This document shows positions 542 to 54,820 of a stretch of 64,000 nucleotides of DNA, piece after piece. The position numbers and the translations under genes were made by a program. The notes under the pieces were generated by a model. The model made no database searches. It was not told where the DNA came from and saw nothing but the letters and a program-made list of their open reading frames with translations. The stretch comes from an uncultured Poribacteria bacterium. Lineage in GTDB: Bacteria; Poribacteria; WGA-4E; WGA-3G. The stretch spans positions 4,352,001-4,416,000 of the forward strand of contig OX638351.1 of the NCBI GenBank assembly GCA_951813565.1. Reading direction: 5' to 3'. Each line of letters opens with the position of its first letter. Within the stretch, counting starts at the first letter, position 1.

Positions 542-1050
542 TATAACCCAAGTTGCTACCTATATCGCGAATGCTCTTGTAGGAGGGGTTTCTAACCCCG
601 ATTTAAAAAAGAAAGCATAAGAATTAGCTGGAAATCCTTGTTTTTCAGTAAAAAGCAATGTCTACAAGCTTGAAATCTTGTCCGTAGCAACTTAGGTTAT
701 TATAGTGGATTTTACAATTAACTGGACATTGCCACTCGGACGGACAAGTGTTCTACAGTTTTAAAGTCGCGACCTGCGAATCAACGCCAAATGCGCTTTT
801 GGCATTTGGCGGGTCGCTACTACAGGAAGAGGCGCAATGAATTGCGCTTGGTGTTCTCCGCGTTTTCCGCGATTCAGACAGAAAAAAGATCAAAAGTACC
901 GAATTAAAAAATTAATCTTCATTTAGTTTGTGCACTATTAGACGCAAACTAAAAGTTTACGCTACGATATTTCGCGTATAATGCAAATTTCTTGATCAAA
1001 AATGGTGTCTACAGATCTAAAATCTTGTCCGTAGCAACTTAGGTTATTAT
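542..1050. repeat. MITE/REP mosaic
   Basis: Inverted ends TAACCCAAGTTGCTAC and GTAGCAACTTAGGTTA; the right end occurs twice (~660-703 and ~1006-1050). Contains GTAG hairpins and an AATCAAC module at 779-810. Confidence 0.7.
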
Positions 1051-1089
1051 GTAGGTGTAATCCCGCTACCGAGCAACAAGGAACAGTTT

Positions 1090-4000
1090 GTGCAAGAGTT
1101 TTTACGAAGAACGAAAGATTATCAGAAACTGATTGAATGCCTTAAGAATGGAGAAAACCCTCCGTGGCTCAGAGGGTTACGCAACGCTTCAACTTCCTAT
1201 TTCTTGGCGAGTCTAATAGAAGATTTCCCAAACAAATCTTTCCTTATCGTTTTTCCTTCACACCGCGAAGCAGAACAGGTACTGGAAGAGGTGCGCGCGT
1301 TCCAAAACTGCAATTTAGAACATAGGAATGCTGCACCGACTGATCCACATACCGACCTATTTCTTTTTCAGGCGTGGCAGAATACGCTATTTGAAGGTGC
1401 CTCACCAACCAAAAATATTTGTGTTGATCGAATGCGGTGTCTTTATAGTCTTATTACAAAAAATAGTAGTGCAGACGCGTTTGATGCTTCACTAGCTACA
1501 CCACAAAGTGTTGTGTTCACAACGATTCGTGGATTATCTTATAAACTTCCATTACGTAAAACATTAGCCGCAGCGTGTCAAACCTTTAAAATCGGTGATG
1601 AGATAGAATTGCATGAACTAATTGCCTTTCTTATTCGCAGCGGATACCGACAAGTGGAACTGGTTGAAGTAAAGGGAGAATTCGCACACAGAGGCGATAT
1701 TTTAGATATATATCCGCTCACTTCCGATGCTCCTATCAGGCTCGATTTTTTTGGGGATGAACTTGATGAGATTCGTCTGTTTGACCCGACTTCGCAAGTT
1801 TCAATAGAGCAGCAGCCTTCAGTTGTTATCACACCGATGTCAGAAGTATGTCTCGCTGACATCTCCATGCCACATTGGAAATCACAAACTGAACGACTGA
1901 TGAAGCAAACTGCCAATTCTCCCGATTTTATCAATTCCATTCGGGAAATGACACACCTGTTAGAGGACAGTCTCAAACGGGTAAAATCAGATAGCATAAA
2001 TGTAATTGACGAACCTCCAGTGGAAATTGACGGAGTTGAAGCATTCTTACCGATGCTATTCCCGCAAACAGAGATGTTGACGGATTATCTACCAGATGAA
2101 ACGATTGTTTTCATGGTTGAGCCTCGATGGCAAACACGAGAAGCGGAACAGATGCGTGAGCAACTACAGGAAATATATGATAGAAAATTGGCAGAAGGAA
2201 AATTAATGCCTACACTTGATAGTTTGCTGGTGCCTACTGATACACTTCAATCCGAATTAGAAAACTATCCGAACATCTCTATCTCTTTAGCGTCTCCCAC
2301 GACCGATCAAGAAAATAAAAAGATACCCGTTGACGCCAATCAGTCCACGGACACCTTGGAACTCCATTTTGATATGCAGTCGCTCGGACACGGTAGAGGC
2401 AACTACCAGATGGTTATTGACTATATCAAAAGGTGGACAACTAAAGGATATTTCGTTAACGTATTCTGCGAAACACCACAGCAGGCAAAACGGGTCTTAG
2501 AGATGTTAATTGAGCGCGATTTACCACCTGAGCAAATTTCTGTATCTGTAGGCTTTATCTCTGAAGGCTTTTTGAGTGAATTCCTCAAGCTTGTTGTCAT
2601 TTCAGAAAATGAAATTTTTGGTAATCGTCAGCGGCGAGCCGTCTCATCAAAACGATACAAAAACGGGGCACCACTTCTAAGTCTCGTAGATATGAAAGTG
2701 GGCGACTACGTCGTTCATGTTTCTCACGGTATAGGGATTTATGAAGGTATTCGCCGCATGGATATTGATGGGCAATCTCAGGATTTTCTTATCCTTAGAT
2801 ACAGGGAAGCGGACAAACTCTATGTACCAACTTACCAAGTTGATCTGGTGCAAAAGTATATTGGAAACAAAGACGAGTCATACCAACCGAGCATAGACTA
2901 TCTCGGTGGTAAATCTTGGGAAAAGAAAAAAGGACGTGCAAAAGCTGCCGTTGAAGAAATGGCAGGTGAACTCCTTAAACTATACGCTGCTCGTCAAGCT
3001 AACAGAGGTTATAGTTTTCCGACAGAAGTGCCGTGGGAAGGCGAATTTGAAGCACTTTTTCCTTTCCAAGAAACAGATGACCAACTTCAAGCCATTGAAG
3101 ATGTTAAAGCCGACATGGAGACTGAAAGACCAATGGATCGGCTTATCTGTGGGGATGTTGGATACGGTAAGACAGAAGTAGCATTACGCGCCGCTTTCAA
3201 AGCAGTAATGGCAGAAAAACAGGTTGCACTGCTTGTCCCGACAACTATTCTTGCTTTGCAACACTACGACACCTTTGAAAAACGTTTCAAACCGTTTCCT
3301 ATTCATGTTGAAATGTTAAACCGTTTTCGCAGCCAAAAGGAGATAAAATCGGTTAAAGAAAAACTTGAAAAAGGGACCGTCGATATCGTCATCGGCACTC
3401 ATTCCTTACTTTCCGATACTGTCTCTTTTGACAACCTTGGACTACTCATCGTTGACGAAGAACATCGCTTCGGCGTGAAACACAAAGAAAAAATCAAGCA
3501 GTATAAAGAGACTGTAGATGTTCTCACACTTACGGCTACACCGATTCCACGTACTTTGCACATGTCTCTTGTCGGCATAAGAGATTTCAGTATCATCAAC
3601 ACGCCACCAGCCAATAGATTGCCAATTCAAACGCATGTCCTGCCTTACAATTCTAAGGTTATCCGAGACGCAATAACGAATGAATTAACAAGAAACGGAC
3701 AGGTATTTTTTGTCCACAACCGTGTCCAGAATATCGCTATTATTGCCAAAACCATTCAAGAACTCGTTCCACATGCACGTGTCGCTATTGCTCACGGGCA
3801 AATGCCGGAACGTGAGTTAGAAAGTGTTATGTTAGAGTTTGTCCGCCACAAACATGATATCCTCGTTTGTACTATGATTATTGAGTCCGGATTAGACATT
3901 CCTAATGTTAATACCATCATGATAAATCGGGCGGACGCTTTCGGATTAGCACAGTTATATCAACTCCGCGGTCGAGTTGGACGTGCCGATGAACAAGCTT

Positions 4001-4695
4001 ATGGCTATCTTTTCTATCCACAGGATAAACCGATTACTGAAGGTGCACAGAAACGGCTCCGTGTCATAGAAGAGTTTACGGACCTCGGCTCCGGTTTTAA
4101 AATCGCTTTGAGAGATTTAGAGATAAGAGGGGCAGGGAACATCCTCGGTGCACAACAACATGGACATATCACAAATGTTGGTTATGAACTCTACTGTAAG
4201 CTGCTTGATGAGGCTGTCCGAAAATTAAAAGGTGAAAAAGTTGAAGAAGAAATTGAAATCAGTATCAATTTACCTATTGAAGCATTTCTTCCTGACGACT
4301 ATATTCCTGACAGTCGACAAAAAATTTCTATCTACAAGAAAATTTCTGCTCTAAAAACTGATACAGATAAACATGAACTCACCAACGAACTTAAAGACAG
4401 ATATGGAGATATACCAGAACCTGTTGAGATGTTGCTTGAAATCTCAAGTATCAAACAACTCTGTCAAAAACTCGGTATTACAGCCATTGTCGCGGGAGGT
4501 AATCGGATTAAAGTGACCTTTGATGAACACAACCCCCGAATAGATGTGACCCAGTTCGTTGAGGCAGTTCATAAAAACCCACAACTTGAATTACGCCCAC
4601 CAGCACAACTGATGGTTGGTATAGAAAATTTAACTGGAAAGAAGTTATTAACCGAATTGCAACGAATTTTAAATATATTTGTTGTATCTGATTGA
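1090..4695 (+). CDS. mfd: Transcription-repair coupling factor
   Basis: UvrB-like N-terminus, CarD/RID ([12 protein letters not shown]), [23 protein letters not shown] and TRCF C-terminus. Confidence 0.97.
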
Positions 4696-4755
4696 ACTAT
4701 TTTATATGCGTGAGGTATAATAACACCTCAGCAAAATTGAAAGGAGAATTCCAAA

Positions 4756-5733
4756 GTGAAAAAATCTATTATTGTTGTGGCAGCAGTTGTTGCAACCTGT
4801 CTGCTCACTTGGTCTCTTGTCCGCTCCGACAACCACAAATCTGCTGAAGAACAGGTTGACAATAGCCAAATCATTATAGCAGAGTACAAGTGGGGTGGTG
4901 AACTTCACCAAATTTCTCTTGCTGAATTGGAAGCAGCTATTGCTGAATTGCCAACCTACCGCCAGCGAAATTATGCTACTAAAGCGGGGAAAGCAGAATA
5001 CTTAGAGGATTATATCGATGAAAGACTCAAACTGCTTCAAGCTACAGATGCTGGCTTTGATAAACTCCTCGAACATCTCCAAAAATTAGATGATTATACC
5101 CATCAACTCATGGTAGAAAAGCTCACTGAAGCGGAAGTTGATGCTAAGGCGACTTATACTGATGATGACCTCATGGCATTCTATGATGAACACAAAAGTG
5201 AATACATTGAAGAAGCAAAAGTGCGCGCCACCTGCATTACTCTTGATGATGAAGACTTAGCTAATGAAACTTTGGATCAGATTAAAGCTGGAACAGACAT
5301 CGTTGAGATGGCAAAGAAACTTTTTGAGGAAAAGAAATTGGCGAATGGCCCTGGCAGTGCAAGTGAAGAGGATCCTGGTAATACATTCTTCTTTGGCAAA
5401 AGTGCACCGCAGAGTTGGTCTGAATTTATTGAGGAAGTTTTTGAAATGGAAATCGGAGATATGACCGATTCCGTTTTTGAAACGGATGTCAATGATACAA
5501 CATATTACCTCATTTTCCGTAAAGAGGAACATCAACCAGAACGCCAAAAGGAATTTGAGGAAGTCAAATCCGACATTGAACGGAAAGTTCAACGAGAGAA
5601 GAAACGCGCCCGCATTCTTGAATGGGTTGAAGAAATCTCTCTGGTAGCGAAACTAAAAACTTACCCTGAGAACATTCCTGCTCTGGTCCAGCCAGAAACA
5701 GCGGAAGAGAAATCCGATACGTCTGAGGAGTAG
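4756..5733 (+). CDS. Exported PrsA/PpiC-like parvulin-fold chaperone (degenerate active site)
   Basis: Signal peptide, helical chaperone domain, FYDEHKSEY...VRATCI, FEEVKSDIE. Confidence 0.75.
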   Translation: MKKSIIVVAAVVATCLLTWSLVRSDNHKSAEEQVDNSQIIIAEYKWGGELHQISLAELEAAIAELPTYRQRNYATKAGKAEYLEDYIDERLKLLQATDAGFDKLLEHLQKLDDYTHQLMVEKLTEAEVDAKATYTDDDLMAFYDEHKSEYIEEAKVRATCITLDDEDLANETLDQIKAGTDIVEMAKKLFEEKKLANGPGSASEEDPGNTFFFGKSAPQSWSEFIEEVFEMEIGDMTDSVFETDVNDTTYYLIFRKEEHQPERQKEFEEVKSDIERKVQREKKRARILEWVEEISLVAKLKTYPENIPALVQPETAEEKSDTSEE

Positions 5734-5766
5734 TTCCGTAGCATTACCTTAAAGGAGGTAGCATTA

Positions 5767-6741
5767 ATGAAAAAATATACTTATATCCGCTTCATCTTAT
5801 TACTCCCTATTCTTGCCGCACTTCCGTTCTTATATAGTTGTGGCGACAAAGCAATTGGTGCAGATGGAACTGTCATCGCTGAATTTGAGTGGGACGGGAA
5901 ACAGCGAATCACACTTGAAGAAATGATGCAGGAAATCAGCGAACTTCCTGAATACAAACAACGTCAATATCAAGACAAAGAGGGGCTTGAAGAATACATG
6001 ACCCTCATGGCTGAAAGCCGTTTAATCCTTTGTCTTGCCAAAGACCGGAAACTCAACGAAGATCAGGAAATTCTCAAAAAGGTCAAGGATTATCTTCACG
6101 ATTTAATGATTGATAGGATCACGGAACGCGAAGTTGACAGCAAACTTATCTTGTCAGAAGATGATTATCAGGCATATTATGATACGCATAAAGAGGATTA
6201 CGTCCGTCCGGAACAAGTCCGATTATTGTGCCTCACGCTTCTGGATAAAGAACGCGCCGATGAAGTTTTTGCTGAAATCAAAGCAGGTAAAGACATTGCA
6301 GTTGTCGCGCAAGAGCTGTCTGATAGAGGTGAATTGGTGGGACCTGGTGCTAATCCTGCATCCCCTGGTGACACTGACTATATTAGCAAAAACTCTTATC
6401 CGCCGGGAACAGAACCGTTTATGGATGCTGCCTTCAGTGCAGAAGTTGGTTCACTCCATCCATCAGTCATTGAAGTTGAAGTGCAAGGTGAAAAATACTA
6501 TATGATGTTCCGTAAAGAAGATGGGAGGGATGCACATCAGAGACCCTTTAGTGAAGAGGATGTGCGTAAAAACGTAATAAGAAAAGTTGAACGAGAACGT
6601 CGGGATGCCCTGATGAATGCGTGGATCTCGCAACTCCGGGAACGTGCCGAAGTAAAAACCTTTATTGACCGCATTCCGGAGGATAAACCTCCTGAAGAGG
6701 AATCTGAGAATCCATCCGAACAGACATCACCTGAGGAATAG
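5767..6741 (+). CDS. PrsA/PpiC-like lipoprotein, paralog of the upstream gene
   Basis: Lipobox LYSC, YYDTHKEDYVRPEQVR, FMDAAFS; collinear with 4756-5733. Confidence 0.75.
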   Translation: MKKYTYIRFILLLPILAALPFLYSCGDKAIGADGTVIAEFEWDGKQRITLEEMMQEISELPEYKQRQYQDKEGLEEYMTLMAESRLILCLAKDRKLNEDQEILKKVKDYLHDLMIDRITEREVDSKLILSEDDYQAYYDTHKEDYVRPEQVRLLCLTLLDKERADEVFAEIKAGKDIAVVAQELSDRGELVGPGANPASPGDTDYISKNSYPPGTEPFMDAAFSAEVGSLHPSVIEVEVQGEKYYMMFRKEDGRDAHQRPFSEEDVRKNVIRKVERERRDALMNAWISQLRERAEVKTFIDRIPEDKPPEEESENPSEQTSPEE

Positions 6742-6831
6742 ATTCTCAACGAAGTGATGTCAGATAGTACGGGCGGCACCACACTAACCGCCCGTCTTAC
6801 TTTTATAGACTCTCAAAATTGGAGGCACTTT

Positions 6832-8163
6832 ATGAAACCCAAAACAGTTGTTATTGTGCTGCTAATTGTGCTTCTCATCTACAGCGGCGTTACACCTACT
6901 ATCGCGAAGATATTTGATGAAATAATCGCCTATGTTAACGATGATGTTATCACCAAACGACAACTTGACACCTTGGTTAAGCAATATGCATTTGAACTCC
7001 AGCAAATTCACCGATACACCGAAACTGAAGCACTTAAAGAAGCTGAAAAGGAGCGTGCTCAAACACTCGACAGACTTATTCGGCAAAAGTTATTGGTGGA
7101 AGCTGCCCTAACGCTGAAAATCCAAGTTCCTGATGCTGAGATTGAGGAATATATCCAAAATTTTAAAACGAAGTACCAGATTGCAACAGACGATGAGTTT
7201 AAACGACTGCTTAACCAAGACGGACTCACCGTTATAGCATTTCGTGAACAAATTCAACGGAATCTGATGACAGAAAAACTGGTTATGGGGAGAATCTTAC
7301 CAAGGCTCCAAGTGCGCGATAGTGATATTCAAAAATTTTTTGAAGAAAACCGAGACCAACTTCCAACTAAAGCTGATAGAGTTAGTTTGCGACATATATT
7401 CATTGCTTTTAAACCAACAGAAGTTGACCGAAAAATTGCATCTGACGAAGTGACTCAAGCACTTGAAGAAATACAATCAGATAAAACACAATTTGAAGGT
7501 ATAGCGCGCCGCATCGCCTCAAAACATAATTTAAATGCTGAAGCAGGGTCTCTTGTTGAGACTACTCCATCTGAAATACTTTCACTTCCCGATGCGTTCT
7601 TGACTGTCCTCGCCAAACTCAAAGCAGGGGAAGTCAGCGAAGCAACTGAAACGTCTGATGGCATCCATGTTTTCATAGTTGAAACTCGAACTGATGAGAA
7701 AATTTCGTTTCGACATTTGACTGTTCCATTCCTATTCAGCGAGGAGACTTTACAGGCTGCGCGTGAACGAGCGACGGAAATTACACAAAAATTGGAAGCA
7801 GGGGAAAATTTCATTGCCATTGCTAAAGAACATTCTGATGATATGGAAACTCGCGAAAAAGGTGGCGACTTTGGGGTTCATACCCTAACTGAGTTAAATC
7901 CAAAAATTCGGGAAGCCGTCCAATCTCTTGAGGTTGGAAAATATAGCAAGCCGCTTGAAACCGAAGTTGGTCTTTATATTTACAAAGTTGATGATCGCAA
8001 AACGCCTGAGTTGACTCAGCAAGAGAAGCAGCAAATTATCGGTATTCTACGTCAGCAACTTTTTGAAAAAGAATATGCTGCTTATACGGACTCGCTCCTT
8101 GAAAACGCCTATATCAAAATCAAACAGGACGCGGTGCCAACACCTGATGCTAAAGACAAATAA
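6832..8163 (+). CDS. surA: SurA-like chaperone with two parvulin domains
   Basis: GGAGG RBS before ATG 6832; DEIIAYVNDDVIT SurA N-terminus; LRHIFI, AKEHSDD...GGDFG. Confidence 0.8.
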   Translation: MKPKTVVIVLLIVLLIYSGVTPTIAKIFDEIIAYVNDDVITKRQLDTLVKQYAFELQQIHRYTETEALKEAEKERAQTLDRLIRQKLLVEAALTLKIQVPDAEIEEYIQNFKTKYQIATDDEFKRLLNQDGLTVIAFREQIQRNLMTEKLVMGRILPRLQVRDSDIQKFFEENRDQLPTKADRVSLRHIFIAFKPTEVDRKIASDEVTQALEEIQSDKTQFEGIARRIASKHNLNAEAGSLVETTPSEILSLPDAFLTVLAKLKAGEVSEATETSDGIHVFIVETRTDEKISFRHLTVPFLFSEETLQAARERATEITQKLEAGENFIAIAKEHSDDMETREKGGDFGVHTLTELNPKIREAVQSLEVGKYSKPLETEVGLYIYKVDDRKTPELTQQEKQQIIGILRQQLFEKEYAAYTDSLLENAYIKIKQDAVPTPDAKDK

Positions 8164-8253
8164 CATGTGATTCGTTTGAACAAAGACTTGTGAAGAAGAA
8201 CGAAGATATTTTACCTATCATAGCCAAATCCAAAAATATGTGGACATCTTCTC

Positions 8254-12925: not shown

Positions 12926-14289
12926 CACTCCCCGTCAAACCCCCTGCCTTTAGGTAGGGGATGTAGACGGCGAAAGTTTTGATTTAAAATATACTTTCAA
13001 TCTAATCACAATGTGGTATAATATATCATACTATATTGTAGCTCTTGAAGTGATAAAAGACTATATTGAAGGTCAAAGTGGACAATGAGAAAATCTCACA
13101 AGTTCAAACTTCAACACCAATCTAACACAATCAAACTTGGTAATATGCTTGATGATATGTGGGAAATCCATGTGCATATCATGCGTTTGGCACGTAGGTA
13201 TTATCGCATGTTCGGCAAAAATTTGTCTGCGTATCGTCTGAAGGCACACGTCACAAAACTTAAAAAGACAACTAAACCGCATTGGGCAGCCTTGCCGAGT
13301 CAAGTTGTGCAAGACGTTGTCCTACGTTATGGTAAATCACAAGACGCATTTTTCCAAAATATAGCAAGCCGCAAATCAGGTAAAACAACGCGTAAAGTGG
13401 GTAGACCGAAAATCAAACCGAGACACAAATACAACTCCATGACCTTCACACAAGCGGGCTACAAACTTGAAGATAATCGTATCAAAATCAACTGTATAGA
13501 TACATGGTTTTCGTTTCACAAACACCGTGAAATCAAAGGTGTCATCAAGACGATCACCATCAAACGTGACAGGTGCGGTGACTATTGGATATGCTTTTCG
13601 TGCGAGAATGTTGACGATCCCGAACCCAAACCCAAGACAGGTAAGAGCGCAGGATTTGATTACGGAAACAAAACATTCCTCACAAGCGACGAAGGCAACA
13701 AGATAGAATCCCCGCAGTTTTTCAAACAATCACTCAAGACGCTGCGATCTCTCAACAAAGCACTCAGTCGTAAAGTCAAAGGTTCTAACAACTATTATCG
13801 TGCGTGTCGTGCTTTGGCAAGGCAACACAGAAAAGTTGCCCGACAAAGAGAAGATTGGCAGTGGAAACTTGCTCACGAACTTTGTGTAGAGTTTGACACA
13901 CTCATTTTTGAAACGCTGAACCTTGACGGTATGAAACGATTATGGGGACGTAAAGTTTCTGACCATTCTTTCTACCAGTTTCTTCAGATATTGGAACAGA
14001 AGTGTGCGAAGCACGGCAAAAAACTTGTGCGAATCTCTCAATGGATAGCAACAACAAAACCTTGTAGTGATTGTGGATACCATAACAAAGAACTCTCTCT
14101 TTCTGATAGGCAGTGGACATGTCCCGAATGTGGGTCACACCACGACAGAGACACCAACGCTGCTATCAATATCAAACGGGCAGGCTTGGCTGCCTAAAGT
14201 GGAGCGACAATAAGACGGTCAACTCTCTGAGAAAACCGCAGTCGCAAGGAAGCACAAGCCCCTACCTTTAGGTAGTGGGTACCTATGAC
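12926..14289 (+). mobile_element. IS200/IS605-family TnpB-only (IS1341-like) element
   Basis: Inserted 3' of TTAG, ends in TGAC, no TSD. Subterminal hairpins at 12941-12960 and 14259-14279 are preceded by AAAC and CAAG. Confidence 0.93.
13085..14197 (+). CDS. tnpB: RNA-guided endonuclease TnpB
   Basis: RuvC-I GFDYG, RuvC-II FETLNL, Zn ribbon CSDC...CPEC, RuvC-III DRDTNAAINI. Confidence 0.95.
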   Translation: MRKSHKFKLQHQSNTIKLGNMLDDMWEIHVHIMRLARRYYRMFGKNLSAYRLKAHVTKLKKTTKPHWAALPSQVVQDVVLRYGKSQDAFFQNIASRKSGKTTRKVGRPKIKPRHKYNSMTFTQAGYKLEDNRIKINCIDTWFSFHKHREIKGVIKTITIKRDRCGDYWICFSCENVDDPEPKPKTGKSAGFDYGNKTFLTSDEGNKIESPQFFKQSLKTLRSLNKALSRKVKGSNNYYRACRALARQHRKVARQREDWQWKLAHELCVEFDTLIFETLNLDGMKRLWGRKVSDHSFYQFLQILEQKCAKHGKKLVRISQWIATTKPCSDCGYHNKELSLSDRQWTCPECGSHHDRDTNAAINIKRAGLAA

Positions 14290-24535: not shown

Positions 24536-25071
24536 TGAACACAAAATCTATCATATCGTCCATCTTAACCTTAGTTTTATAGTAAAAACCATAATTATTT
24601 ACACACTACAAATCAACGCTAAATGCGCCTATGGCATTCGTCCAAATCAACGCTGAATACACCTATGGTATTCAGCGGGTTCGGTTTCCCGCCAAATACG
24701 CCAAACCAACGCCAAATGCGCGTATGGCATTTGGCGTATTTGGCGTTGATTCACCGAACCGGTGTTTATTCAGTCTCATAGTTCGGCAGAATGCGCTTGG
24801 TAGAATGCGCGCATGGCATTCTGCATGATTCTTCTGCATTGGTTAGGAAACCGCATCTACCAGGGAGTGTGCACATATTTTCGGATTTTACTATAAAAAC
24901 GCAGAAACGCTTGATCCCACTGCTATTCGGGATGCCTTGATAAAAGTCACTGACTACCAAGGTGCATCCACCATTTCACGTTTTGATGAAAATCGACACC
25001 CGGTCAAAAGTCTATTGCTCCACACTATTCGCGATGAACAGATAGTCCTCTACAAAGCCGTTGATCCATAG
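24535..25071 (+). pseudogene. Branched-chain-type ABC substrate-binding protein; middle replaced by a MITE
   Basis: AAGGAG RBS plus MNTKSIISSILTLVL before the MITE; NAETLDPTAIRDAL...RFDENRHPVKS...VDP* after it. Confidence 0.7.
24578..24895. mobile_element. MITE containing REPs and AATCAAC modules
   Basis: Imperfect TIRs TATAGTAAAAACCATAATTATTTACAC and TATAGTAAAATCCGAAAATATGTGCAC (reverse complement). Confidence 0.7.
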
Positions 25072-38281: not shown

Positions 38282-38388
38282 TTTAGGTGTGGAAGGGGGT
38301 GTGTAAAGTTTTTGTAGAAATCCGCACAACTCCTATTGTAGGGGCGGGTCTCCGGGGAATGCCTTTTGGCATTCCCCGGGACCCCGCC

Positions 38389-38590
38389 CATAGGCGTCAA
38401 TTTAAGCACACAATTACCAGATTGCCTCTTGTGGGAGGGCTTTATAAGCCCGATTTATATGTATTTATCGGGGTTGAAAACCCGACAAATGCCAAAAAGC
38501 GCATTTGGCGTTGATTTGGCAGCATGCCAAACGCGCATGCTGCGTTGATTCACTCCCACAAGAGGGTATATCCTTAAATTGACGGCTATG
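38389..38590. mobile_element. IS231-like (IS4 family) MITE
   Basis: TIRs CATAGGCGTCAATTTAAG and CTTAAATTGACGGCTATG. Confidence 0.7.
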
Positions 38591-43152: not shown

Positions 43153-43785
43153 ATTATAGCGGATTCTACAATTAACTGGACATCTGAGCTGTCCGAGGGA
43201 ACTCCGATTCCCGACTATTAGTGGTTTGGTCGCGATTCGGAGATCGCTCCTACAGAATATATGTGAACTTATTTAACGTGAGCTTGATAATTAGAATGAG
43301 TATAGATGTCCGTTGGGTAGAGCGAAGCGAAACCCATAGGTGTAAACTTAAAGAAATTTACGCGTGCTAAATACCCAACTTATGAGATGACGATAGGTGC
43401 GCGTTGTAAGTGCGCTGTTTTATCTTCCTGTAGGAGCGACCTCCTGGTCGCGACATATTACGAACGGTCGCGAGCTGGAGCTCGCTCCTACAAGAAGAAA
43501 ATCGAGCGGACAAGGTTTCCCTCCTACAAGAGAAAATCCAGCATTTTTTCTTAAGTTGACACCTATGGGTAGAGCGAAGCGAAACCCAACAATTCAACCG
43601 TCTTGACAGTCCTAAAGAGTTGGGTTTCACTTATCTTTTCGAAAATATCGACCTCAAATAGGTCAACAACCTCTCTTTACGGTCTGTTTTTATTCTCCAT
43701 TTCCGTTCTACCCCACCGAATGCCGTAGGCGCATTCGGTGTTGATTCCCTACGGGATTTATCAAACTCACGTTAATTTACTATAA
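43153..43785. repeat. Nested MITE/REP mosaic
   Basis: MITE 43275-43773 contains IS231-like MITE 43335-43567, several GTAG REPs and an AATCAAC module at ~43716-43746. Confidence 0.75.
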
Positions 43786-43956
43786 AAGATGTGCCCACAT
43801 AGAAACCGAGTGATACCATTCGTAAGGGACACACTTAAAGTTAATACGGAAGTAACGCTTATCAGAGAAACACGGAAGGGTGGTGGTTTATTGTGTTCCA
43901 TTTCCCATCTAATACCCCAATAGTCCGTTGCAATTGGAAACCAATCAAAAGGATTG

Positions 43957-45350
43957 ATGATGAAAACTTTAGTTGTGAATCGAAATACAATTGTGTCAAT
44001 TTTCTTAGTCATTTTGTTGATATATGGGACACAAGGTATCAGTTACGGACAGGATGAAGCCCTGATTGAATTTGCTGATGCTAATTTAGCAAGGGCAGTC
44101 CGCGAAGCATTAGGTCTTGGTACTGGAGATGGCGTTGACCTTCTTAAAATTCCAAAAGTGGAATTGGAAAAATTAACAACGTTAGATGCCTCAGACAAAA
44201 ATATAATTGATCTCACTGGCTTAGAACACGCGTCACAACTGACAGAGTTATATCTTGATGAGAATCAAATCAGCGACATCACCCCTCTTGCACAACTTAC
44301 ACAACTGACGAGGTTAAGCCTTCGGGAGAATCAAATCAGCGATGTCACGCCTCTGGCAGGATTGATATCTCTTAAATTGCTCCGCCTTTTGAATAATCCT
44401 ATTAAGAGTAAGTCCCCACTTCACGCGCTCCGGGATGCGAATCCAGATGTGGATTTAGATATTACAATCTATGATTATATAGAAGGTCCGTGGCTCTGGA
44501 TGATTGCACCTGGTGGACTCTTAAACGCTGATAATCTCGCCGCATCAAGTGAAGGCATGATTACGGAGACGCAGATCGCTCAAAACGGTGTTAGTGAGGG
44601 AGATCACTTTAACTCGTTGCAATGGACAAGCGGACGTTTACTGCCAACCAGAGTTTGCGGTATTTTCTTATGTTCGTCAGATAATGTCATCAATGTGGTT
44701 AGACAGATTGGGTTGACCGATAGTAAGCAACTAACTCAATATTCTGCTTATGCCTTGATTAACCTTTTCTCTCCACGCGAACAAAAAAATGTTTTGATGG
44801 GGGTAGGAAGCGATGATTCTATTAAAGTTTGGCTCAATGGCGAGGTTGTTTACATAAACGATACTACAAGAAGGATACAAAACCGGTTTCGTGTAGATCT
44901 GAATGCTGGTAATAATCTGCTGTTAATTAAAGTTTGCAACCATGGTAGTTGGAAGCATTCTCTTTGGACTACTAATGATGATTGGGGTATGTTTTTAAAA
45001 TCTACCTTGATCCTGCGGATTATACCATATCTCTTCCAATGCGGGATTCCAATAGTCAACAACCCGTGACATCTGAAGTGCCTGAAGTAACTGAAACTCC
45101 TGAAACGTGGATACCCTACCACTTAGCAAAAGACGCGGAGGTTACACTGCATATCTATGCGGTGAACGGCACATTTGTGCGGACGTTGACGCTTGGACAT
45201 CAACCTGCCGGGTTATATCAAAACCGTTCTCGTGCGGCATATTGGGATGGCAAAAACGAATTCGGTGAAGCTGTGGCGAGTGGTGTCTATTTCTATACGC
45301 TTACTGCAAGTGATTTCTCTACTACGCGGAAGATGCTGATACGGAAGTAA
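43957..45350 (+). pseudogene. Secreted LRR protein with FlgD-like C-terminal domain, frameshifted
   Basis: LRR repeats; GSDDSIKVWLNG; frame change in the T-run at ~44992 (WGMF/FKIY); C-terminus PETWIPY...YWDGKN...ASGVYFY...RKMLIRK. Confidence 0.75.
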
Positions 45351-46237: not shown

Positions 46238-46269
46238 AAACCATTGTGGTATTTAGCGAGGATAATGAT

Positions 46270-46886: not shown

Positions 46887-47087
46887 TACCATTTCTAAAA
46901 AATGAGACTTCATTGTGAAATTATCGGTTCAAGCTGAGTTGAAGAATGTCCGAGGCGCCAAATGCCAAACGCAGAATCAACGCCGAGCGCGCGTATGGCA
47001 CTCGTCGCATTTGGCGTTGATTTGGCAATGAATTGCGCGACTACAAACGTGTTTTTTGTTAATGAAGGCGATCAATTAGAAATGGTA
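46887..47087. mobile_element. MITE containing a REP and nested AATCAAC modules
   Basis: TIRs TACCATTTCTAA and TTAGAAATGGTA; a shorter copy lies at 50160-50226. Confidence 0.7.
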
Positions 47088-47144: not shown

Positions 47145-48326
47145 TTGGCATCCAGCAATTTTAGCCGGGCATCATTAATTCTGCCCATCTACCTCCCTGC
47201 CTTACTTCTCTCAACAGGCGCGGGGATCATCTCTCCAACACTCCCTATCTATATCAAATCGTTTGAGTTATCCTATACGTTGACGACTTTCGTAATTGCA
47301 GTTGGCGTTGTAGGGAATATCCCTGCTGGTGTGTTAGTAGCGCGAATTGGCAGAAAACCTGCGATGCTGCTTGGCTTGGTAATGATAGGTTTTTCAGCAA
47401 TTGGTATGGGAACAGCCCGAAACATTTGGCATCTTTTCGGGGCGCAGTTAGTTGGGGGTGTCGGTAATGCGTTGTGGATGCTCTCTCGACATGCCTATAT
47501 GGCAGATGTAATTCCGTTGGCAAAACGTGGAAGATCAATCGCGTTGTTTGGCGGTGTCAATCGGATGGGAACTTTCGCTGGAAAGTTTGGCGCAATCTTC
47601 CTTGGGGTGAACCTACGTCTCCCATTCTTTGTATATACAGCATTTGCTGTGATAACATTAATCATCTGCTTCTTCTCTATACCCGGAACAAAACAGGAGT
47701 CAAAGACTCATCCGCAAAAAGCCCAACAACCCTATCTAAAACAACTTCTTCATGTGTCAAAACAGCATTTTGAACTCTTGGCAACAGCTGGCATAGGACA
47801 GGTCTGTGTTCAGACACTACGGCGCGGATGTCATATCATCATTCCGCTTTATGCAAATGATGTCGCAGGTTTAACGACACGAGACGTGCGTTTAGTAGAA
47901 ATGATTTCTTCGTCCGTTGATATGTCAATGTTCCCTGTGGCTGGGTTTATGATGGATCGTTTCGGTAGGCGATACGCAACGGTGCCGGGTATCTATATCT
48001 TTGCTACGGGTATGGTGTTGATGCCATTTACGCATACGTTTACATGGCTTCTATTGGCGGCAATTGTGATGCGATTTGGTAACGGAATCGCATCAGGAAC
48101 AATGATGACACTCGGTGCGGATTTAGCACCGAAGGAAGGTACTGGAGAATTCCTTGGGTTGTGGCGACTTACTGGGGATTTTGGTGGTTCCGCGGGACCT
48201 GTCGTTGTTGGAAATATCGCGGATCTATTTGGATTGGGTTTTTCGGGTTTTGCTTTAGGCGGAATTGGTTACCTTGCGGTCGGTATCTTCCTCTGGTTAG
48301 TTCCAGAGACGCTGCAAAGGGAATAA
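47145..48326 (+). CDS. MFS transporter
   Basis: Many TM helices; GVLVARIGRK and GFMMDRFGRR. Confidence 0.9.
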   Translation: MASSNFSRASLILPIYLPALLLSTGAGIISPTLPIYIKSFELSYTLTTFVIAVGVVGNIPAGVLVARIGRKPAMLLGLVMIGFSAIGMGTARNIWHLFGAQLVGGVGNALWMLSRHAYMADVIPLAKRGRSIALFGGVNRMGTFAGKFGAIFLGVNLRLPFFVYTAFAVITLIICFFSIPGTKQESKTHPQKAQQPYLKQLLHVSKQHFELLATAGIGQVCVQTLRRGCHIIIPLYANDVAGLTTRDVRLVEMISSSVDMSMFPVAGFMMDRFGRRYATVPGIYIFATGMVLMPFTHTFTWLLLAAIVMRFGNGIASGTMMTLGADLAPKEGTGEFLGLWRLTGDFGGSAGPVVVGNIADLFGLGFSGFALGGIGYLAVGIFLWLVPETLQRE

Positions 48327-48328
48327 CA

Positions 48329-48414
48329 TGCCGGGAAAGGGACTCGAACCCTTACGCGCGAAATGCACACTAGAACCTGAATCTAGCCTGTCTACCAAAT
48401 TCCAGCATCCCGGC
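48329..48414 (-). tRNA. tRNA-Leu(CAG)
   Basis: GCCGGGA acceptor stem, anticodon arm CTAGA-TTCAGGT-TCTAG, long variable arm, GGTTCGAGTCC; CCA is not encoded. Confidence 0.95.
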
Positions 48415-48567
48415 TTAATAGATAATACAAGTATACACAGATTGCTGAGAAAAGTCAAATTAAAAGCGTAAATATGGTATAATCTTAATATGATATTGGG
48501 TTGATGCAAAATGGTTTTGGAGTAGCATAATTACAAAGAAGTCCGCAAATGTAACGGAGAAAAAACG

Positions 48568-49095
48568 ATGAAACGTTACCTATATATCCTCTTACTGATA
48601 TGTGCTTGCGTAATAGTTTTGGGATGCCAATCAAAAGCATTCCAAATGCTAATTGAACCGCAGGAATAGGAGAATCTTTCGGTTGCAGATGGTGTAACCT
48701 GTACTGCGCCAGAAATGATAGATGGTAATCTAAAAACAGTTGGGTATGCGAAGGGCAGATGGATTCATTTGACACTCCCCACCCGAAAAACTATCCATCG
48801 TATTATCATCCGTGGCACAAACATTACAGATGCAATTTTGTATAAGCAGTTAGAAGGTGACGGACGTTGGCAAGCGATTCTGGAGGTTCATAACAACCGA
48901 GGTAATGCGATTGAGATGCTTAGGAGTATTGTGGCACAATCATTACGTATTTTTGTCGGTGGCACATCCGAAGATAAACGCAGAGCCCCCCAATATTCTC
49001 ATCTGCCTGGCGGCATCGTGCAGCGAAAGGCATTAGGTAAACCGTTCGCTCAGGAAATTGAGGTATACGGACTTATATCAAAGGACAAAAAATGA
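48568..49095 (+). pseudogene. Disrupted lipoprotein (possibly discoidin-like fold)
   Basis: RBS plus MKRYLYI; frameshift to LLICACVIVLGC; in-frame TAG at 48667; continues into ORF 48715-49095. Confidence 0.6.
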
Positions 49096-50156
49096 AACGT
49101 TTGATTTTTGAAGATACTTATAGTTGGTCAGTATTTAGTGAGGCACGGCAGATAGATTTTAACGGACATTTATGGGTTAGAGACGAGGGAAATATCGCAA
49201 TTGATCCAGTTGCAACGTGCGATGCCGACCGTGTCCAATTTGAAGGACTTGGTGGTGCGAAATGGATTGTTATTACAAATCGTGACCATGAACGAGAAGC
49301 TGCTGCCTTACAGGAATGGACAGGGGCTGAAGTGATTGTGCATGAAGCGGATGCTGATTTGCTTGAGATTAAACCGTCTCGAACAATCCGTGATGGCGAA
49401 ACTATTGTTCCCGGATTACAAGCTGTGCATCTCCCGTTTGGCAAAAGCCCTGGAGAAATAGCGCTCTATTTTTCTCAGAAAAATGCAATCCTTTTTGGAG
49501 ATATAGTTGCTGGTGAACCGATGGGACGCTTGACACTACTTGCAGATGATAAATTAGAAGATGCCCCAAAAGCTGCGATGCAACTGCGCAAGGTGTTAGC
49601 ACTGAATTTCAACGCAGTCCTTGTTGGAGACGGACACTCCCTCTTTAGAGAAGGACGGCAAGAATTGGTGGAGTGCCTGCAGGCACGGAGCGATATCTAT
49701 ATCAATCGTATCAACATTGATGAAATTGAGTGGGCGCATAGAGATGCACCAAACCCTTACGGTTTTGAATATAAAGACATTGACCCGCTTATCGGTGCTA
49801 AAAATATAGGATACTGCGTTTACCGTCTACAACCGGGCAAGGCGAGTTTCCCGATGCACCTGCACCATTTTGGCGAGGAGATGTGTTACGTCATGGAAGG
49901 CACTTGTACACTCAAAACGCCGCGGGACGATCTTGAAGTGCGACAAGGCGATTTCATTGCGTTTCCACCTGGTCCGGTCGGCACACATAAGTTCGTAAAT
50001 GAAGGTGATGCGCCAGTTATACTGTTTATACTTGGTACTACTACCCCACACGATGTGAGTGAATATCCGGATTCTAACAAGGTGTTACCTTATGTGATTA
50101 GGGAAATTTATCGGAAAGGTGAGAGTCTAAATTATTTTGATGGCGAGGTGGAATAG
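49092..50156 (+). CDS. MBL-fold plus cupin fusion protein
   Basis: TNRDH, VHEAD, GKSPG, GD, GDG; cupin HLHHFGEE...GD...H. Confidence 0.8.
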   Translation: MKRLIFEDTYSWSVFSEARQIDFNGHLWVRDEGNIAIDPVATCDADRVQFEGLGGAKWIVITNRDHEREAAALQEWTGAEVIVHEADADLLEIKPSRTIRDGETIVPGLQAVHLPFGKSPGEIALYFSQKNAILFGDIVAGEPMGRLTLLADDKLEDAPKAAMQLRKVLALNFNAVLVGDGHSLFREGRQELVECLQARSDIYINRINIDEIEWAHRDAPNPYGFEYKDIDPLIGAKNIGYCVYRLQPGKASFPMHLHHFGEEMCYVMEGTCTLKTPRDDLEVRQGDFIAFPPGPVGTHKFVNEGDAPVILFILGTTTPHDVSEYPDSNKVLPYVIREIYRKGESLNYFDGEVE

Positions 50157-50226
50157 TTATACCATTTCTAATTGACGAATTGTCCCGACCTACGAAATAA
50201 TGTCCTATTATCATATAGAAATGGTA

Positions 50227-51594
50227 TTAGGTATGCCTAACTTTCGACCTACGTACCTCTTGGTTTTCTTTTGCTCGCGCATCTTCAAGATCAGGGTCAA
50301 CAATAGCATGCAGAGCATCTTCTAATTCACTACGTATTGCAGCATATTCAGGCATTAACGCCAAATCTTCGTTTTCAAGTGGATCAACCTCCACATTGAA
50401 CAGCTGCGGTTGGCTTCCGACGTAGTGACATAGTTTGTAATCCCCACGTTTGAGCATAAATCCAGCGTTTAGCATGCCCATGTGGTGGTATTCTGAGAAG
50501 ACGGAACGCGTTGTTTTGCCTGATTGTTTATTGGCAATTTCCAGTAGACTGTCACCCGGTAAATCGGACGGTTTTTCTAAACCGGCAATTTCTAATAAAG
50601 TTGGTAAAACATCTACCAAAGAGACATTTTGCTTTACACGACCAATTTTACCCGAAGGCAAGCGCAACATTAAAGGCACTTTTACTGCCGGTTCGTAGAA
50701 ACACTGCTTTTGCCAAATGCCGTGGTACCCTCCCATTTCACCATGATCGCTGGTGTAGATAACGACTGTGTTTTCACGTAACGGCGACGTATCAATGGCT
50801 TCTAATACCCGTCCAATCTGCGCATCAAGAGACGAAACAAGCGCATAATAGGAGGCTAACGCACAGCGGACAGTTTCTTCTGGTGGCGGAATGTCGTTAC
50901 GCCACGCCCAACGGTGGTGCTGGATTACGGGGTGCTGTGATTCAAGTGGTTCGTTCCACGTTTCTGGCAGCGCAAGTGTGTCCGGATCGTACCATGAGAA
51001 AAACTCAGGTGGTGCAATCAGTGGAAAGTGCGGGTGCATGAATCCACAATAAAGCAGGAAAGGTTTATCGTCTGGTGCATCAACTTTTCTGCGGAGAAAA
51101 TCTACTGCCAAGTCCGCAACCTTTCGGTCATACCTTGTGTGTTCGTGATCTCCTGGACCACATTCAGTAACGTGTGAATTGGAACCCCGACGTGCATCCG
51201 CAGTGCGTCGTGGCGGATTCCCTTTTATGTTGCACCACCGTGGCAGATCATCCAATAAGCGATCAGAAAAACCGAGAAGCCGATCCGTCCCATTGAAATG
51301 TGTGCGTCCACACAACACGGTCTCATAACCCGCCTCTGTCAAATAATCTCCCCACGTTTTGTATTTCCGATCAAGTATTGCCCCTAAATCCCATGCTTCA
51401 ATCTGATGCAGATAACGTCCTGTAAGCATAGACAAACGTGATGGCGTACAGATTGGGCTATTGCAATACGCGTTATCATAAGTGTAGCACTGTTCGGAAA
51501 GACGGTCAAGGTGCGGTGTACGGACAACTGGATGTCCGCTATGCCCCATCATCGTTCCTGTGTGTTCATCTGAGAATAGAAAAACGATATTCAT
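50227..51594 (-). CDS. Sulfatase (choline-sulfatase-like)
   Basis: SDEH, CTPSR, PHFP, SDHG. Confidence 0.92.
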   Translation of the reverse strand: MNIVFLFSDEHTGTMMGHSGHPVVRTPHLDRLSEQCYTYDNAYCNSPICTPSRLSMLTGRYLHQIEAWDLGAILDRKYKTWGDYLTEAGYETVLCGRTHFNGTDRLLGFSDRLLDDLPRWCNIKGNPPRRTADARRGSNSHVTECGPGDHEHTRYDRKVADLAVDFLRRKVDAPDDKPFLLYCGFMHPHFPLIAPPEFFSWYDPDTLALPETWNEPLESQHPVIQHHRWAWRNDIPPPEETVRCALASYYALVSSLDAQIGRVLEAIDTSPLRENTVVIYTSDHGEMGGYHGIWQKQCFYEPAVKVPLMLRLPSGKIGRVKQNVSLVDVLPTLLEIAGLEKPSDLPGDSLLEIANKQSGKTTRSVFSEYHHMGMLNAGFMLKRGDYKLCHYVGSQPQLFNVEVDPLENEDLALMPEYAAIRSELEDALHAIVDPDLEDARAKENQEVRRSKVRHT

Positions 51595-51599
51595 TAAAT

Positions 51600-52565
51600 C
51601 TAATCATCATCGTCATCATCGTCGTGGTCGTCGTCATCATCATCGTCGTCATCATCGTGGTCGTCGTCATCATCATCGTCATCATCATCGTGGTCGTCGT
51701 CATCATCATCATCATCGTCGTAATCGTCATCATCGTCGTAATCGTCATCATCATCATCGTCATAACGAAAGTTAGGAAAATCTGCCGGGTCTTGCTGATT
51801 TATCCAATCAATAAAGAGTTGAATTTCCGCATTGGGCAACCGGGGTCCGTCAGGAGGCATTCTCCCTGAAACAATTTCTTCTATAATATCGCTGCTTCGG
51901 GCATTACCTGGGACAAATACATCCTCATCCTCTGCGCTTCTTATGAAAGTTTGGTATGTTCTGAAATCGAGATTGTCGGGTCCATTGGCATCATGACAAC
52001 CAGAATAAGCACACTTTGCTGTGAGGATAGGTAACAGGTGTTGTTCAAAGGAAACTGTCTGGCCAGTCGGTACCGGGGTTTGTGGTTGAGGTGATTCATC
52101 AACGGGAGTATCAACGGTTGCCGCTTGATTATTAATCCAATCAGTAAAAGCTTGGATTTCTGCCTCGCTCAACTTGGGACCACCAAGCGGCATTCTACCT
52201 GAAACAATTTCTGCAATAATAGAACTCCCTTGAGCATCACCTGGAATGAATACAGGTCCTCCATCTCCGCCTTTTATGAAAGCTTGATATGTGCTGAAGT
52301 CAAGGTTTTTTGGTCCTCCAGCGACGTGACAACCCGCATACGCGCATTTTGCGGTGAGAATAGGTGAAAGGTTCTGTTCAAAAGAGACTTCAGCGTTAGC
52401 AGTTTCACCACTTCCCACATGGGGAGACTGTGTGTTAGGAGGCTGTACATCTTCGGATAAAATATTATCGGGCAGTAAAATATTACCTTGCGGAGAATCG
52501 CATCCAAAGAAACAAAATAACAATCCGACGGTTAGCAGGAAAAATCTCTGTATATCTTTAAACAT
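51600..52565 (-). CDS. Lipoprotein with two planctomycete-type cytochrome c domains and an Asp-rich tail
   Basis: Lipobox FFGC; CAYAGCH and CAYSGCH, GRMP, WI; ~55-aa poly-Asp C-terminus. Confidence 0.78.
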   Translation of the reverse strand: MFKDIQRFFLLTVGLLFCFFGCDSPQGNILLPDNILSEDVQPPNTQSPHVGSGETANAEVSFEQNLSPILTAKCAYAGCHVAGGPKNLDFSTYQAFIKGGDGGPVFIPGDAQGSSIIAEIVSGRMPLGGPKLSEAEIQAFTDWINNQAATVDTPVDESPQPQTPVPTGQTVSFEQHLLPILTAKCAYSGCHDANGPDNLDFRTYQTFIRSAEDEDVFVPGNARSSDIIEEIVSGRMPPDGPRLPNAEIQLFIDWINQQDPADFPNFRYDDDDDDDYDDDDDYDDDDDDDDDHDDDDDDDDDDHDDDDDDDDDDHDDDDDDD

Positions 52566-52627
52566 AATAACCAACCTTTCTAATACTGTTTATGGTGAAA
52601 TATGGAAATAATTGGACACCTCACCTG

Positions 52628-53366
52628 TGAATCAACGCCGAATACGCCAAATCAAGAAATCAATGGTATGAATCATGACGAATGCCATACGGGGAATGCC
52701 AAAGGGCATTCATACCGTTGATTTGGCGCATTCGTCTTTATACCAAATTAACGGGATTTATCGCATTTTCCGGACGGTAGGTGCGGTTTCCTAACCGCTC
52801 CATAACTGTCAATTTAAGAAAAAAAGCGTTTGTAGTCGTGCAATTCATTGCCAAATCAACGCCAAGCGCACTTGGGCGAATACGCGTGGTATTCGCCATG
52901 ACTTGTCGCCTCGGACATTCTGTAGGAGCGAGCTCCAGCTCGCGACCGGGAGGTCGCTCCTACAGAAGAAAATCGGGGTTGAAAACCCGCAGCATGCCGG
53001 ACGCGCATGCTGCGTTGATTTGGACAAATGCCAAAAAGCGCATTTGGCGTTGATTTGGCAGCATGCCGGACGCGCATGCTGCGTTGATTTGGACAAATGC
53101 CAAAAAGCGCATTTGGCGTTGATTTGGCAGCATGCCGGACGCGCATGCTGCGTTGATTCACTCCCACAAGAGGGTATATCCTTAAATTGACGCATAAGGT
53201 ACGTTTTCCTAACTGCTCCATAAATATGAATCAAGTTAATGTGGTATTAGTCATTCACCGGGTATGAATGCCGTTTAGGCATTCCCCGTGTGGTATTCGG
53301 CGGGAGCGATCTCCGAATCGCGACTAATGCCACTCGTAGTCGGGAATCGGAGTTCCCTCCTACAGA
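52628..53366. repeat. Deeply nested REP/MITE/micro-module mosaic
   Basis: IS231-like MITE at 52801-53198, five-unit array at 52989-53160, nested modules at 52630-52736 and 52851-52906. Confidence 0.8.
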
Positions 53367-53648
53367 TAAATATATCTAATTAAATCAATAATCTACCATC
53401 AATAGGCATAATTTTTGTAGTGTTGTTTTCAAGTCCAATATTCTTTTATTTTCAACATCATAACTCATAGGAATTGAACAAAGGACACATAACGTTGTGC
53501 AAATATTGTGCCATCTCTTACAATAAGCAGATGCCCGTATCTTGATAAAATTATCTGATTTTTCTGTTCAAAAAATGGACATTTCTGTTCAAAAAATGGA
53601 CAGGGTAATCATCGCTACAAAAATAGGGGTGGAATAGAAATACGATAT

Positions 53649-54383
53649 TCATCCGATGGCTCTTTCATTTGTAGAATCGGTATGGACATTGCTATAGAGC
53701 TCCGTTCCCTTTTTATTACAAAATACCAATATGAACAGGTTTTCTTCTGCTTGTTCTACATCTTTACAAAAGAGATGTTTCTCAATGAGATACTTAGCAA
53801 ATGCGACTGTCCAAAAATAGGAGGGGTAGAAGAACGTCCCTTTGTCAGGAATTGTGCTGTGTCCTCCCTTTAAACCGGTCAGTGCATCGTAGCGATCCAG
53901 AAAAGCTGCCTGACCCGCTCTCTTGATAAATTCATCATGCATAAATACAACAAAAAGACCGTTATTCGATAAAATCTGTTTTAGTTGAACTGTCATGTTT
54001 TCCAGCGCCTGATATGATACCTCAACTATATTTGAAGGGAATAGTGCAAGATCGAAAGAATTCTCTTTGTAAGGTAGAGAACCTATATCTCCAATATTAA
54101 ATTGACATTGACTTTTTCTATTATGTGCTACCTTTTTTGCGTGGCGGATTGGAATTTCTGCACAGTCAATGCCGGTTGCTATCGCCCCCATATCTTCCAT
54201 AGCAAAGGTGCACCGTCCTGCATTGCAGCCTAAGTCTAATGCACGCATGCCGGGCTGTATCAACTTACACAAGTGTTTTGCATATCTATCAAAAACAAAT
54301 TGCGATTTCGGATTATCAGGGTCAGTTGTCGGGTGAACACCTGATGCGTTGTATAATTTCTGGATCGCATTAATTGTATCCAT
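53649..54383 (-). CDS. Class I SAM-dependent methyltransferase
   Basis: ALDLGCNAG, GD..SLPY..NSFD. Confidence 0.85.
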   Translation of the reverse strand: MDTINAIQKLYNASGVHPTTDPDNPKSQFVFDRYAKHLCKLIQPGMRALDLGCNAGRCTFAMEDMGAIATGIDCAEIPIRHAKKVAHNRKSQCQFNIGDIGSLPYKENSFDLALFPSNIVEVSYQALENMTVQLKQILSNNGLFVVFMHDEFIKRAGQAAFLDRYDALTGLKGGHSTIPDKGTFFYPSYFWTVAFAKYLIEKHLFCKDVEQAEENLFILVFCNKKGTELYSNVHTDSTNERAIG

Positions 54384-54820
54384 ATTTTGCTTTTCCTTTA
54401 TCTATGAGTTGTGTAGGATTATGTAGTTTGCTCGTTTCAGGCGTTACAATGTTTGTAGCGTATCACATAAATCAGATTTGTTAGACTTTGTTTTATTTAA
54501 CGCTCACTCATGTTGTAGGGCGGGTCCCGGGGAATGCCGAAGGCATTCATACCGTTGATTTTTTGATTTGGTGCCCGCCCGTTGTTCTATCCTCAAGACA
54601 TGGCGAGGCACAGAGACCTCGCCCTACAAATGATTTGGCTCATGTAAAGAATGAGTGCTAATCAAAAGGTTTAACCCGCGTGGTCATTGCCTTCATTAAA
54701 AACAACCGCACACACTTTTTACATGAGCGAATGATTTATGAGATAGTTTGTAGTAGCAATTTATTATCCGTTCTGTAGCGATTCAAACTTGTGTAAGTCC
54801 TATTGTATATTAGTTAATAA

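Follow-up and report, generated by a model that had tools for sequence, protein, structure and literature searches.

A 33–36-nucleotide AATCAAC-tagged hairpin of Poribacteria as a probable very small insertion element

Hairpin units in the window and across the genome

The 64,000-nucleotide stretch analysed here (the window; positions 4,352,001 to 4,416,000 of contig OX638351.1, assembly GCA_951813565.1, from an uncultured Poribacteria bacterium) carries a family of gene-less, non-coding units of 33–36 nt, in each of which a short leader, AATCAAC, stands at the foot of a hairpin. The units occur singly, in tandem and nested in one another, many of them within repetitive extragenic palindromic sequences (REPs; Table 1). 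The unit is a real, very small insertion element that has moved in the past and for whose mover there are candidates only.

Units are present at all ten places named in a preliminary description of this DNA. The leader-plus-arm pattern matches 19 sites in the window, and a covariance model adds a twentieth unit with a mutated leader (24702–24735), giving 13 window matches in all because split and type II units score low. Two of the earlier coordinates require correction: the unit given as starting at 43716 starts at 43715, and the unit given as 52630–52736 does not end there, its 3' arm lying far downstream (Table 1). The heptamer AATCAAC occurs 29 times in the window against an expected 15.8 ± 3.9, a number reached by 0 of 100 shuffles. 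Genome-wide, a perfect 9-bp stem begins immediately behind the heptamer at 259 of 2358 AATCAAC sites, compared with 0–3 sites apiece for nine control heptamers (564–1448 sites each). The genome holds 950 leader-plus-arm sites in total, grouped into 490 clusters.

Table 1. Units, REPs and carrier repeats in the window. A slash marks the bond at which a unit lies.
Position	Strand	Feature	Remark
778..810	+	Lone type I unit in REP loop: tail G, leader AATCAAC, stem 9 bp, loop 7 nt	Covariance-model match, 61 bits
829..847	+	Empty REP	Same bond filled at 46957 and 52852
24578..24895 (ends approximate)	no strand	Larger carrier repeat with inverted TATAGTAAAA ends	Holds the 24609–24835 units
24609..24676	+	Two tandem type I units (34 + 34 nt)	First with decayed stem
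24691..24752	-	Type I unit, loop holding opposite-strand unit	Inner unit 24702–24735, mutated leader; all within REP
24790..24835	+	Leaderless form inside another hairpin	TTG before, ATG after
38484..38552	-	Two tandem type I units	In GTGG-tagged REP
43715..43747	-	Single type I unit, A-T closing pair	Filled in the 99% strain as well
46957..47024	-	Type I unit at REP C/G bond	Opposite-strand unit (46973–47006) in loop
52629..53302	+	Outer type I unit	5' arm 52637–52645, 3' arm 53293–53301
52691..52725	-	Type II unit (35 nt, bulged stem)	Nested in loop
52852..52907	+	Unit at C/G bond of same REP as 829–847	Interrupted by leaderless form
52989..53160	-	Five tandem type I units (34, 35, 34, 35, 34 nt)	In GTGG-tagged REP
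54528..54570	-	Type II unit with 8-nt leader stutter	In REP loop

One REP is empty at 829–847, and its copies at 46957 and 52852 hold units at the corresponding bond, as previously described; these three are paralogous copies, and one variant of this REP has 37 empty copies genome-wide. The unit at 46957–47024 is filled in the 99% strain too, and its whole carrier of about 200 nt is missing from the relative G006. Elements similar to the carrier at 24578–24895 are likewise present or absent at syntenic gaps. In the outer unit at 52629–53302, the two arms stand about 640 nt apart, separated by nested units and repeats that include the 52852 and 52989–53160 groups; compared with an empty, almost identical paralogue, this unit has taken the place of one A in a GTAG REP. 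Within the 52989–53160 array, two stems alternate. Separately, an Asp/His-coding low-complexity tract at 51600–51770 differs in length between strains.

Type I units consist of a 1–2-nt tail, the AATCAAC leader, a 9-bp stem and a 7–8-nt loop (33–35 nt), and type II units have a bulged stem and measure 35–36 nt. The leader had been called almost invariant, and it is exact in 245 of 326 hairpins chosen by the hairpin body alone, those without it mostly representing a second, leaderless form; its conservation extends over at least eight stem types and 35 genomes. The units also include two-ended palindromes and some flipped loops. An 8-nt leader stutter is present in 126 genome copies, including window positions 52648–52664 and 54554–54570, and marks a type II unit inserted just behind the leader of another unit; being common to several species, it probably represents one old event. 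The leaderless form, with about 60–90 genome copies, is the same hairpin with TTG before and ATG after it, and it sits in the 3' arm of other units (in the window, 24790–24835 and 52868–52900). At 38354–38378, a leaderless type II hairpin is bordered by C and G runs on both sides, making it the reciprocal of the two-ended palindromes. Leader bases 1–5 copy stem-arm positions 3–7, with CAAAT, TGAAT and CGAAT each occurring in both, and tail type and arm type are not linked within units.

The stems of the unit covary. Among 58 distinct sequences, picked by a pattern that forces some pairs, 97.1% of cells pair versus 85.9% in shuffles, and 70 cells carry two-sided stem changes, a result matched by 0 of 500 shuffles. 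A retest with 121 distinct sequences, for which the loop region was the sole anchor, gives 83.5% paired versus 68.4 ± 1.1%, with a maximum of 73.1% over 2000 shuffles; in all these figures, related sequences are not independent. The four compensated stem pairs quoted in the preliminary description exist and covary. Given the two-ended palindromes and the flipped loops, part of this covariation may stem from correction of the arms by template switching, and the accessible portion of one study describes hairpins being made and maintained by template switching (PMC8794818).

Among the genomes scanned, the family has a narrow host range. The strict pattern matches 35 of 36 genomes of one genus (0–305 copies each; the own genome has 310) and none of 24 genomes outside it; the covariance model, with 150 candidates scored per genome, matches 24 of 24 genus genomes and 0 of 16 outside. 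Among the 80 loci listed from part of the collection, 79 bear the title Ca. Poribacteria and the last is entered as 'uncultured bacterium'. Low-copy genomes hold 15 units in five genomes, all in REP-like contexts. In viral contigs, 79 loose-pattern matches (22 with at least seven pairs) include none in the usual context and are taken as chance. Rfam 15 at gathering score gives no match in the window, and no description of the AATCAAC family was found in the searchable literature on Poribacteria, small dispersed repeats (SDRs) and RAYT, covered largely as listed entries and abstract openings. To this extent, the unit matches no described REP family or Rfam family.

Filled and empty sites, junctions and passenger spread

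Nearly all leader-plus-arm sites (936 of 950) lie outside the interiors of long open reading frames (ORFs), which make up 75% of the genome. Fourteen sites lie in ORF interiors; among the 13 inspected, two are real units in real genes, and the others are chance matches or mis-called ORFs. In a gene of the lipoate-ligase family, a 36-nt type II unit lies in frame at GTC/GGA, and this locus is filled with an identical unit in three cases and empty in 11 (14 loci fetched; 34 genomes matched). Two of the empty alleles read exactly as the rebuilt site, so that the insertion took place without loss or duplication. The ISAs1 transposase gene of the own genome contains another 36-nt in-frame unit, present in three copies; all 13 relatives' loci that span this site are empty (5 with C/GG), 6 of 19 loci not spanning it, and a search of the stretch in plasmids gave no match. 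Conversely, a 34-nt unit lies in the transposase gene of a relative, at a site that is empty in the copies of the own genome. L117, L014 and L313 are filled/empty pairs, the first of them orthologous and intergenic; of the 174 sites compared, 36 gave an alignment that crosses the junction, in many cases with a paralogue.

Based on the filled and empty alleles in the two coding genes, the further transposase gene and L117, the unit inserted on its own at new sites in the past, and we hold with high confidence that it is an insertion element. The orthologous alleles in two coding genes bear out the earlier view of an ultra-small unit without target duplication. The gene insertions are single units, and at 36 nt each adds 12 residues in frame to the protein. 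The proposal that the element targets hairpins stands as an enrichment and falls as a requirement: 26 target families fold at a median of -4.2 versus -2.5 for 411 intergenic C/GG sites (p = 0.0006), whereas the empty coding target sites of the two clean insertions fold at only -0.9 to -3.6 kcal/mol, so that hairpin targets are not required.

Analysis of 190 collapsed site classes gives a junction rule. In classes with a CA tail (n = 89), the unit is preceded by C in 81 and followed by G in 79 (by GG in about 65); in classes with TG before the leader (n = 47), G follows the unit in 44. Of 350 non-tandem simple units, 330 are followed by G, in line with the preliminary remark that the 3' junction is almost always followed by G. 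Most CA-class families have exact empty copies, and insertion at C/G is precise, neither removing nor duplicating a base. In GTAG REPs, the nearest empty copies, among them the paralogue of window site 52629, have A where filled copies have G, the unit and G. This pattern may reflect a replaced A or the use of rarer GTGG variants, which number 26 versus 271 GTAG copies in one family and 0 versus 46 in another. Each insertion restores C/GG at its 3' end and brings a C/G in its loop, thereby accounting for the tandem and nested copies. Moreover, 1–3 nt are common to donor and target flanks at both junctions, and units enter REPs in both orientations and coding DNA as well. The junctions of the leaderless form depart from the GG rule.

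Most of the present distribution has a different origin. A 1.2-Mb comparison with G006 gives 244 syntenic gaps, with units in G006 only in 37, in the own genome only in 30, in both in 10 and in neither in 167. Of the 67 discordant gaps, 51 differ by at least 100 nt and none by a net 25–45 nt, and therefore dispersal has been mostly as cargo of larger 100–600-nt repeats, of the REP type or resembling miniature inverted-repeat transposable elements (MITE-like repeats). The gap alignments contain two local 34-nt gaps, one of them between different REP types, and the cargo repeats frequently have duplicated TA-rich flanks. The idea of a mobile element thus holds for past insertion of its own, most dispersed copies having moved as passengers of larger repeats. 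In the G006 gaps and at window 24578–24895, several 150–330-nt repeat families carry REPs and units as cargo, with inverted ends of TATAGT-, TACCAAATT- or TAAATTGAC-type.

At strain level, the expected filled/empty polymorphism did not materialise: on the contig of the 99% strain, three of three window sites are filled. Contigs from sequencing runs, which break at repeats, show the 52630 site filled in three runs; a joint of 52628 to 53303, seen in all runs, was not counted, as a paralogue explains it. The demonstrated mobility is accordingly past mobility, with no change observed at the three strain-level sites. Near window position 43909 (L142), the 99% strain has a 92-nt unit-free repeat that is absent from the window and that shows inverted ends and a brief duplication rich in TA; given this polymorphism, strain-level movement occurs in a REPIN- or MITE-like family. 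The same strain has an extra block of 789 nt near 45097.

These observations also bear on whether the unit could be a REP-like tagged hairpin, or a decayed part of larger repeats, without mobility of its own. The 51 discordant gaps and the static sites in the 99% strain speak for such a view. Unit-length in-frame insertions in two genes with empty orthologues, together with the 34-nt insertion in another transposase gene, contradict it for past mobility, and present-day activity may still fit it; overall, we consider it very improbable.

Candidate routes of insertion

We tentatively favour, at a probability of roughly 40%, a single-strand nick followed by transfer or primed copying, carried out by a RAYT-type Y1 HUH enzyme encoded elsewhere. 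The enzyme would nick the bottom strand after a C, and the free end would use 1–3 nt of shared G/C either to join a donor copy or to be extended on it, with the far end resolved loosely and the variable tail arising in this way. Later spread has been mainly as cargo of REP and MITE-like repeats, and insertions in genes persist if in frame (36 nt). Candidate enzymes are available: the own genome has ten Y1 matches, comprising five IS605 TnpA genes and five REP-flanked genes, two of the latter being intact RAYTs above the NCBIfam cut-off. On the bottom strand, the GTAG-class junction reads CC^TAC. The cut of E. coli TnpA-REP overlaps CTAC, with strand exchange in vitro and a proposed primed amplification, according to the accessible part of PMC3333891, and the guide GTGG redirects cutting to CC in that of PMC8266576. 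Both GTAG and GTGG REPs are abundant in the genome. The GTAG-class target bond would therefore correspond to the bond that E. coli TnpA-REP cuts, a likeness that we count for a RAYT.

Several observations weigh against a RAYT. The RAYT flanks consist of GTAG-type REPs, and the leader lies within 1.5 kb at only 7 of 27 RAYT loci (8 with a variant). The closely spaced unit clusters, as listed, contain no candidate mover gene, so that the check for a mover gene flanked by units came back negative for the 27 RAYT loci and the listed close clusters, and the suggestion of an HUH enzyme acting in trans advances no further than a suggestion. The matching RAYT clade is present in only 19 of 39 relatives, and three unit-bearing genomes (G010, G023, G024) give no Y1 match. 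Plain HUH strand transfer loses no target bases, the A-to-G change could reflect insertion into the rarer GTGG variants, and the A is kept at 52629 in one strain. Entry into REPs in both orientations, and into coding DNA, is a further difficulty. In addition, targets C/GC and C/GT fit only a CG cut, whereas the cuts reported in the accessible parts of the studies consulted fall at CT, CA, CC, GA and GT, never at CG, and the E. coli enzyme needs C^T.

Other known movers were sought and rejected. An IS110 mover finds no match among the profiles searched (PF02371, 0 of 1, the own genome; PF01548, 0 of 40 genus genomes). The resident IS605 inserts after TTAGC or TTAAC and ends in TATGAC, unlike the unit junctions, which rejects its TnpA. 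Origins from integron attC sites or CRISPR repeats were considered as well, by motif. The window itself contains the tnpB of an IS605 element (13085–14197; 27 genome copies), inserted in a type I restriction-modification locus. No autonomous parent, with leader and arm enclosing a gene, occurs among the residual leaders listed or between close clusters, and an HUH motif scan of 4456 ORFs gives 81 matches, none an unexplained HUH gene as judged by eye.

It is unlikely, yet deserves consideration, that the 33–36-nt tagged hairpin is pasted at Y/GG by an insertion pathway so far unrecognised, be it a new enzyme specific to the genus or host nick-and-copy. If true, this pathway would constitute a minimal, programmable writer of DNA that has no relation to known transposases, with base precision, regenerating its own target and building ordered arrays. 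Its enzymatic version is a recombinase or nuclease of the genus, neither Y1 nor IS110, that would excise a small circle and insert it at Y/GG. The exact C/G insertion, the constant size and orientation, the conserved leader and the strict genus range agree with such an enzyme, as does the failure of the known candidates. However, only one tyrosine recombinase is present, the 81 ORFs judged by eye include no unexplained HUH-motif protein, and the variable tails and lost target bases speak against a conservative recombinase, leaving this version unlikely.

The version without a dedicated enzyme involves a replication or repair polymerase that, stalled or nicked at a hairpin or GG run, would switch templates through 1–3 nt of microhomology, copy the unit and return, the compensated stems then stemming from template-switch correction and not from selection. 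The 1–3 nt shared by donor and target flanks at both junctions accord with it, two-ended palindromes and flipped loops are expected template-switch products, and template switching can make and maintain hairpins according to the available part of PMC8794818. No mover gene was found at RAYT loci, in close clusters or among HUH-motif ORFs, which also agrees. Nevertheless, a fixed length of 33–36 nt and a leader kept over at least eight stem types and 35 genomes suggest protein recognition, and exact insertion into unrelated coding DNA sharing only C and G is difficult for template switching on its own. We therefore regard this version as unlikely.

A small RNA copy of the unit could also be reverse-transcribed at a nick, in a target-primed manner, with its 3' G pairing with a C run of the target. 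Target-primed reverse transcription is expected to leave one precise and one variable end, and the precise end with GG microhomology, the variable other end and the 126 8-nt stutters resemble such products. Yet the group-II-like reverse transcriptase (RT), which lies beside a CRISPR array, is present in only 7 of 36 relatives, the other RT is an unrelated single gene, and G006 has 305 units and no RT candidate. This route is improbable, and the CRISPR-linked RT was rejected as mover on its patchy distribution and the lack of a candidate in G006. At G000:C1:3988991-3996500, a 465-aa RT with a long insertion lies between a gene that we take to be Cas1-like and a 54-repeat CRISPR array.

Relation to known repeats and mobile elements

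Compared with established systems, the unit behaves like a tagged REP or a Nostoc SDR and departs from REP membership in its tag, in its lack of the doublet form and in the absence of a flanked gene. Like IS200/IS605 elements and palindrome-associated transposable elements (PATEs), it shows no target duplication, a short target motif and a hairpin near the end. PATEs are non-autonomous IS200/IS605 derivatives. The unit differs from IS200/IS605 in having one hairpin instead of two ends with separate guides, and a PATE origin is contradicted by the ends and targets of the resident IS605, which differ from those of the unit. IS110/IS1111 elements that target REPs, such as ISPpu9, share the insertion into REPs and the mobility of small modules, as far as the available part of PMC12288879 describes them; the 40 genus genomes contain no IS110 transposase.

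Tagged REPs, BIMEs and REPINs have the same architecture, in which a short and often imperfect hairpin carries a fixed, unpaired tag at its 5' foot, and tagged REPs likewise occur in hundreds of intergenic copies with tandem and nested clusters, those of the CGTC type also without a flanked transposase gene, in the accessible parts of four studies (PMC3733652, PMC3333891, PMC8266576, PMC3116915). With short palindromes, high copy number and an almost wholly intergenic location (936 of 950), the unit resembles a REP; it lacks a cognate RAYT gene flanked by the repeat (leader at 7 of 27 loci). Moreover, its foot is AATCAAC and not GTAG or CGTC, it forms head-to-tail singles and not the inverted doublets of REPINs, it inserts into REPs, into itself and into genes, and no REPtron was found. 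The main text of PMC3733652 contains neither AATCAAC nor Poribacteria.

The spread of gene-less 20–40-base repeats, such as REPs and SDRs, is a long-standing question. The SDRs of Nostocaceae reportedly go back to Elhai et al. 2008. They too are very small (about 20 bp) and possibly mobile, with no mover named in the available portions of PMC5861425, PMC4390886 and PMC2884548. SDR5, which inserts precisely at one bond of the GC-rich palindrome HIP1, shows the closest behaviour in the accessible parts of PMC4390886 and PMC5861425, and the unit shares with SDR5 both the very small size and the precise insertion at one palindrome bond (PMC4390886, as partly available). Compared by description, the unit differs from SDRs in its phylum, its length of 33–36 nt, its 7-nt leader, its covarying 9-bp stem and its target Y/GG in place of HIP1. 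The present family offers what most such repeats lack, namely exact filled and empty coding alleles, a defined rule for its targets, arrays that regenerate themselves and, within one genome, candidate enzymes as well; with these, the question of how such repeats spread becomes accessible to a direct oligonucleotide assay.

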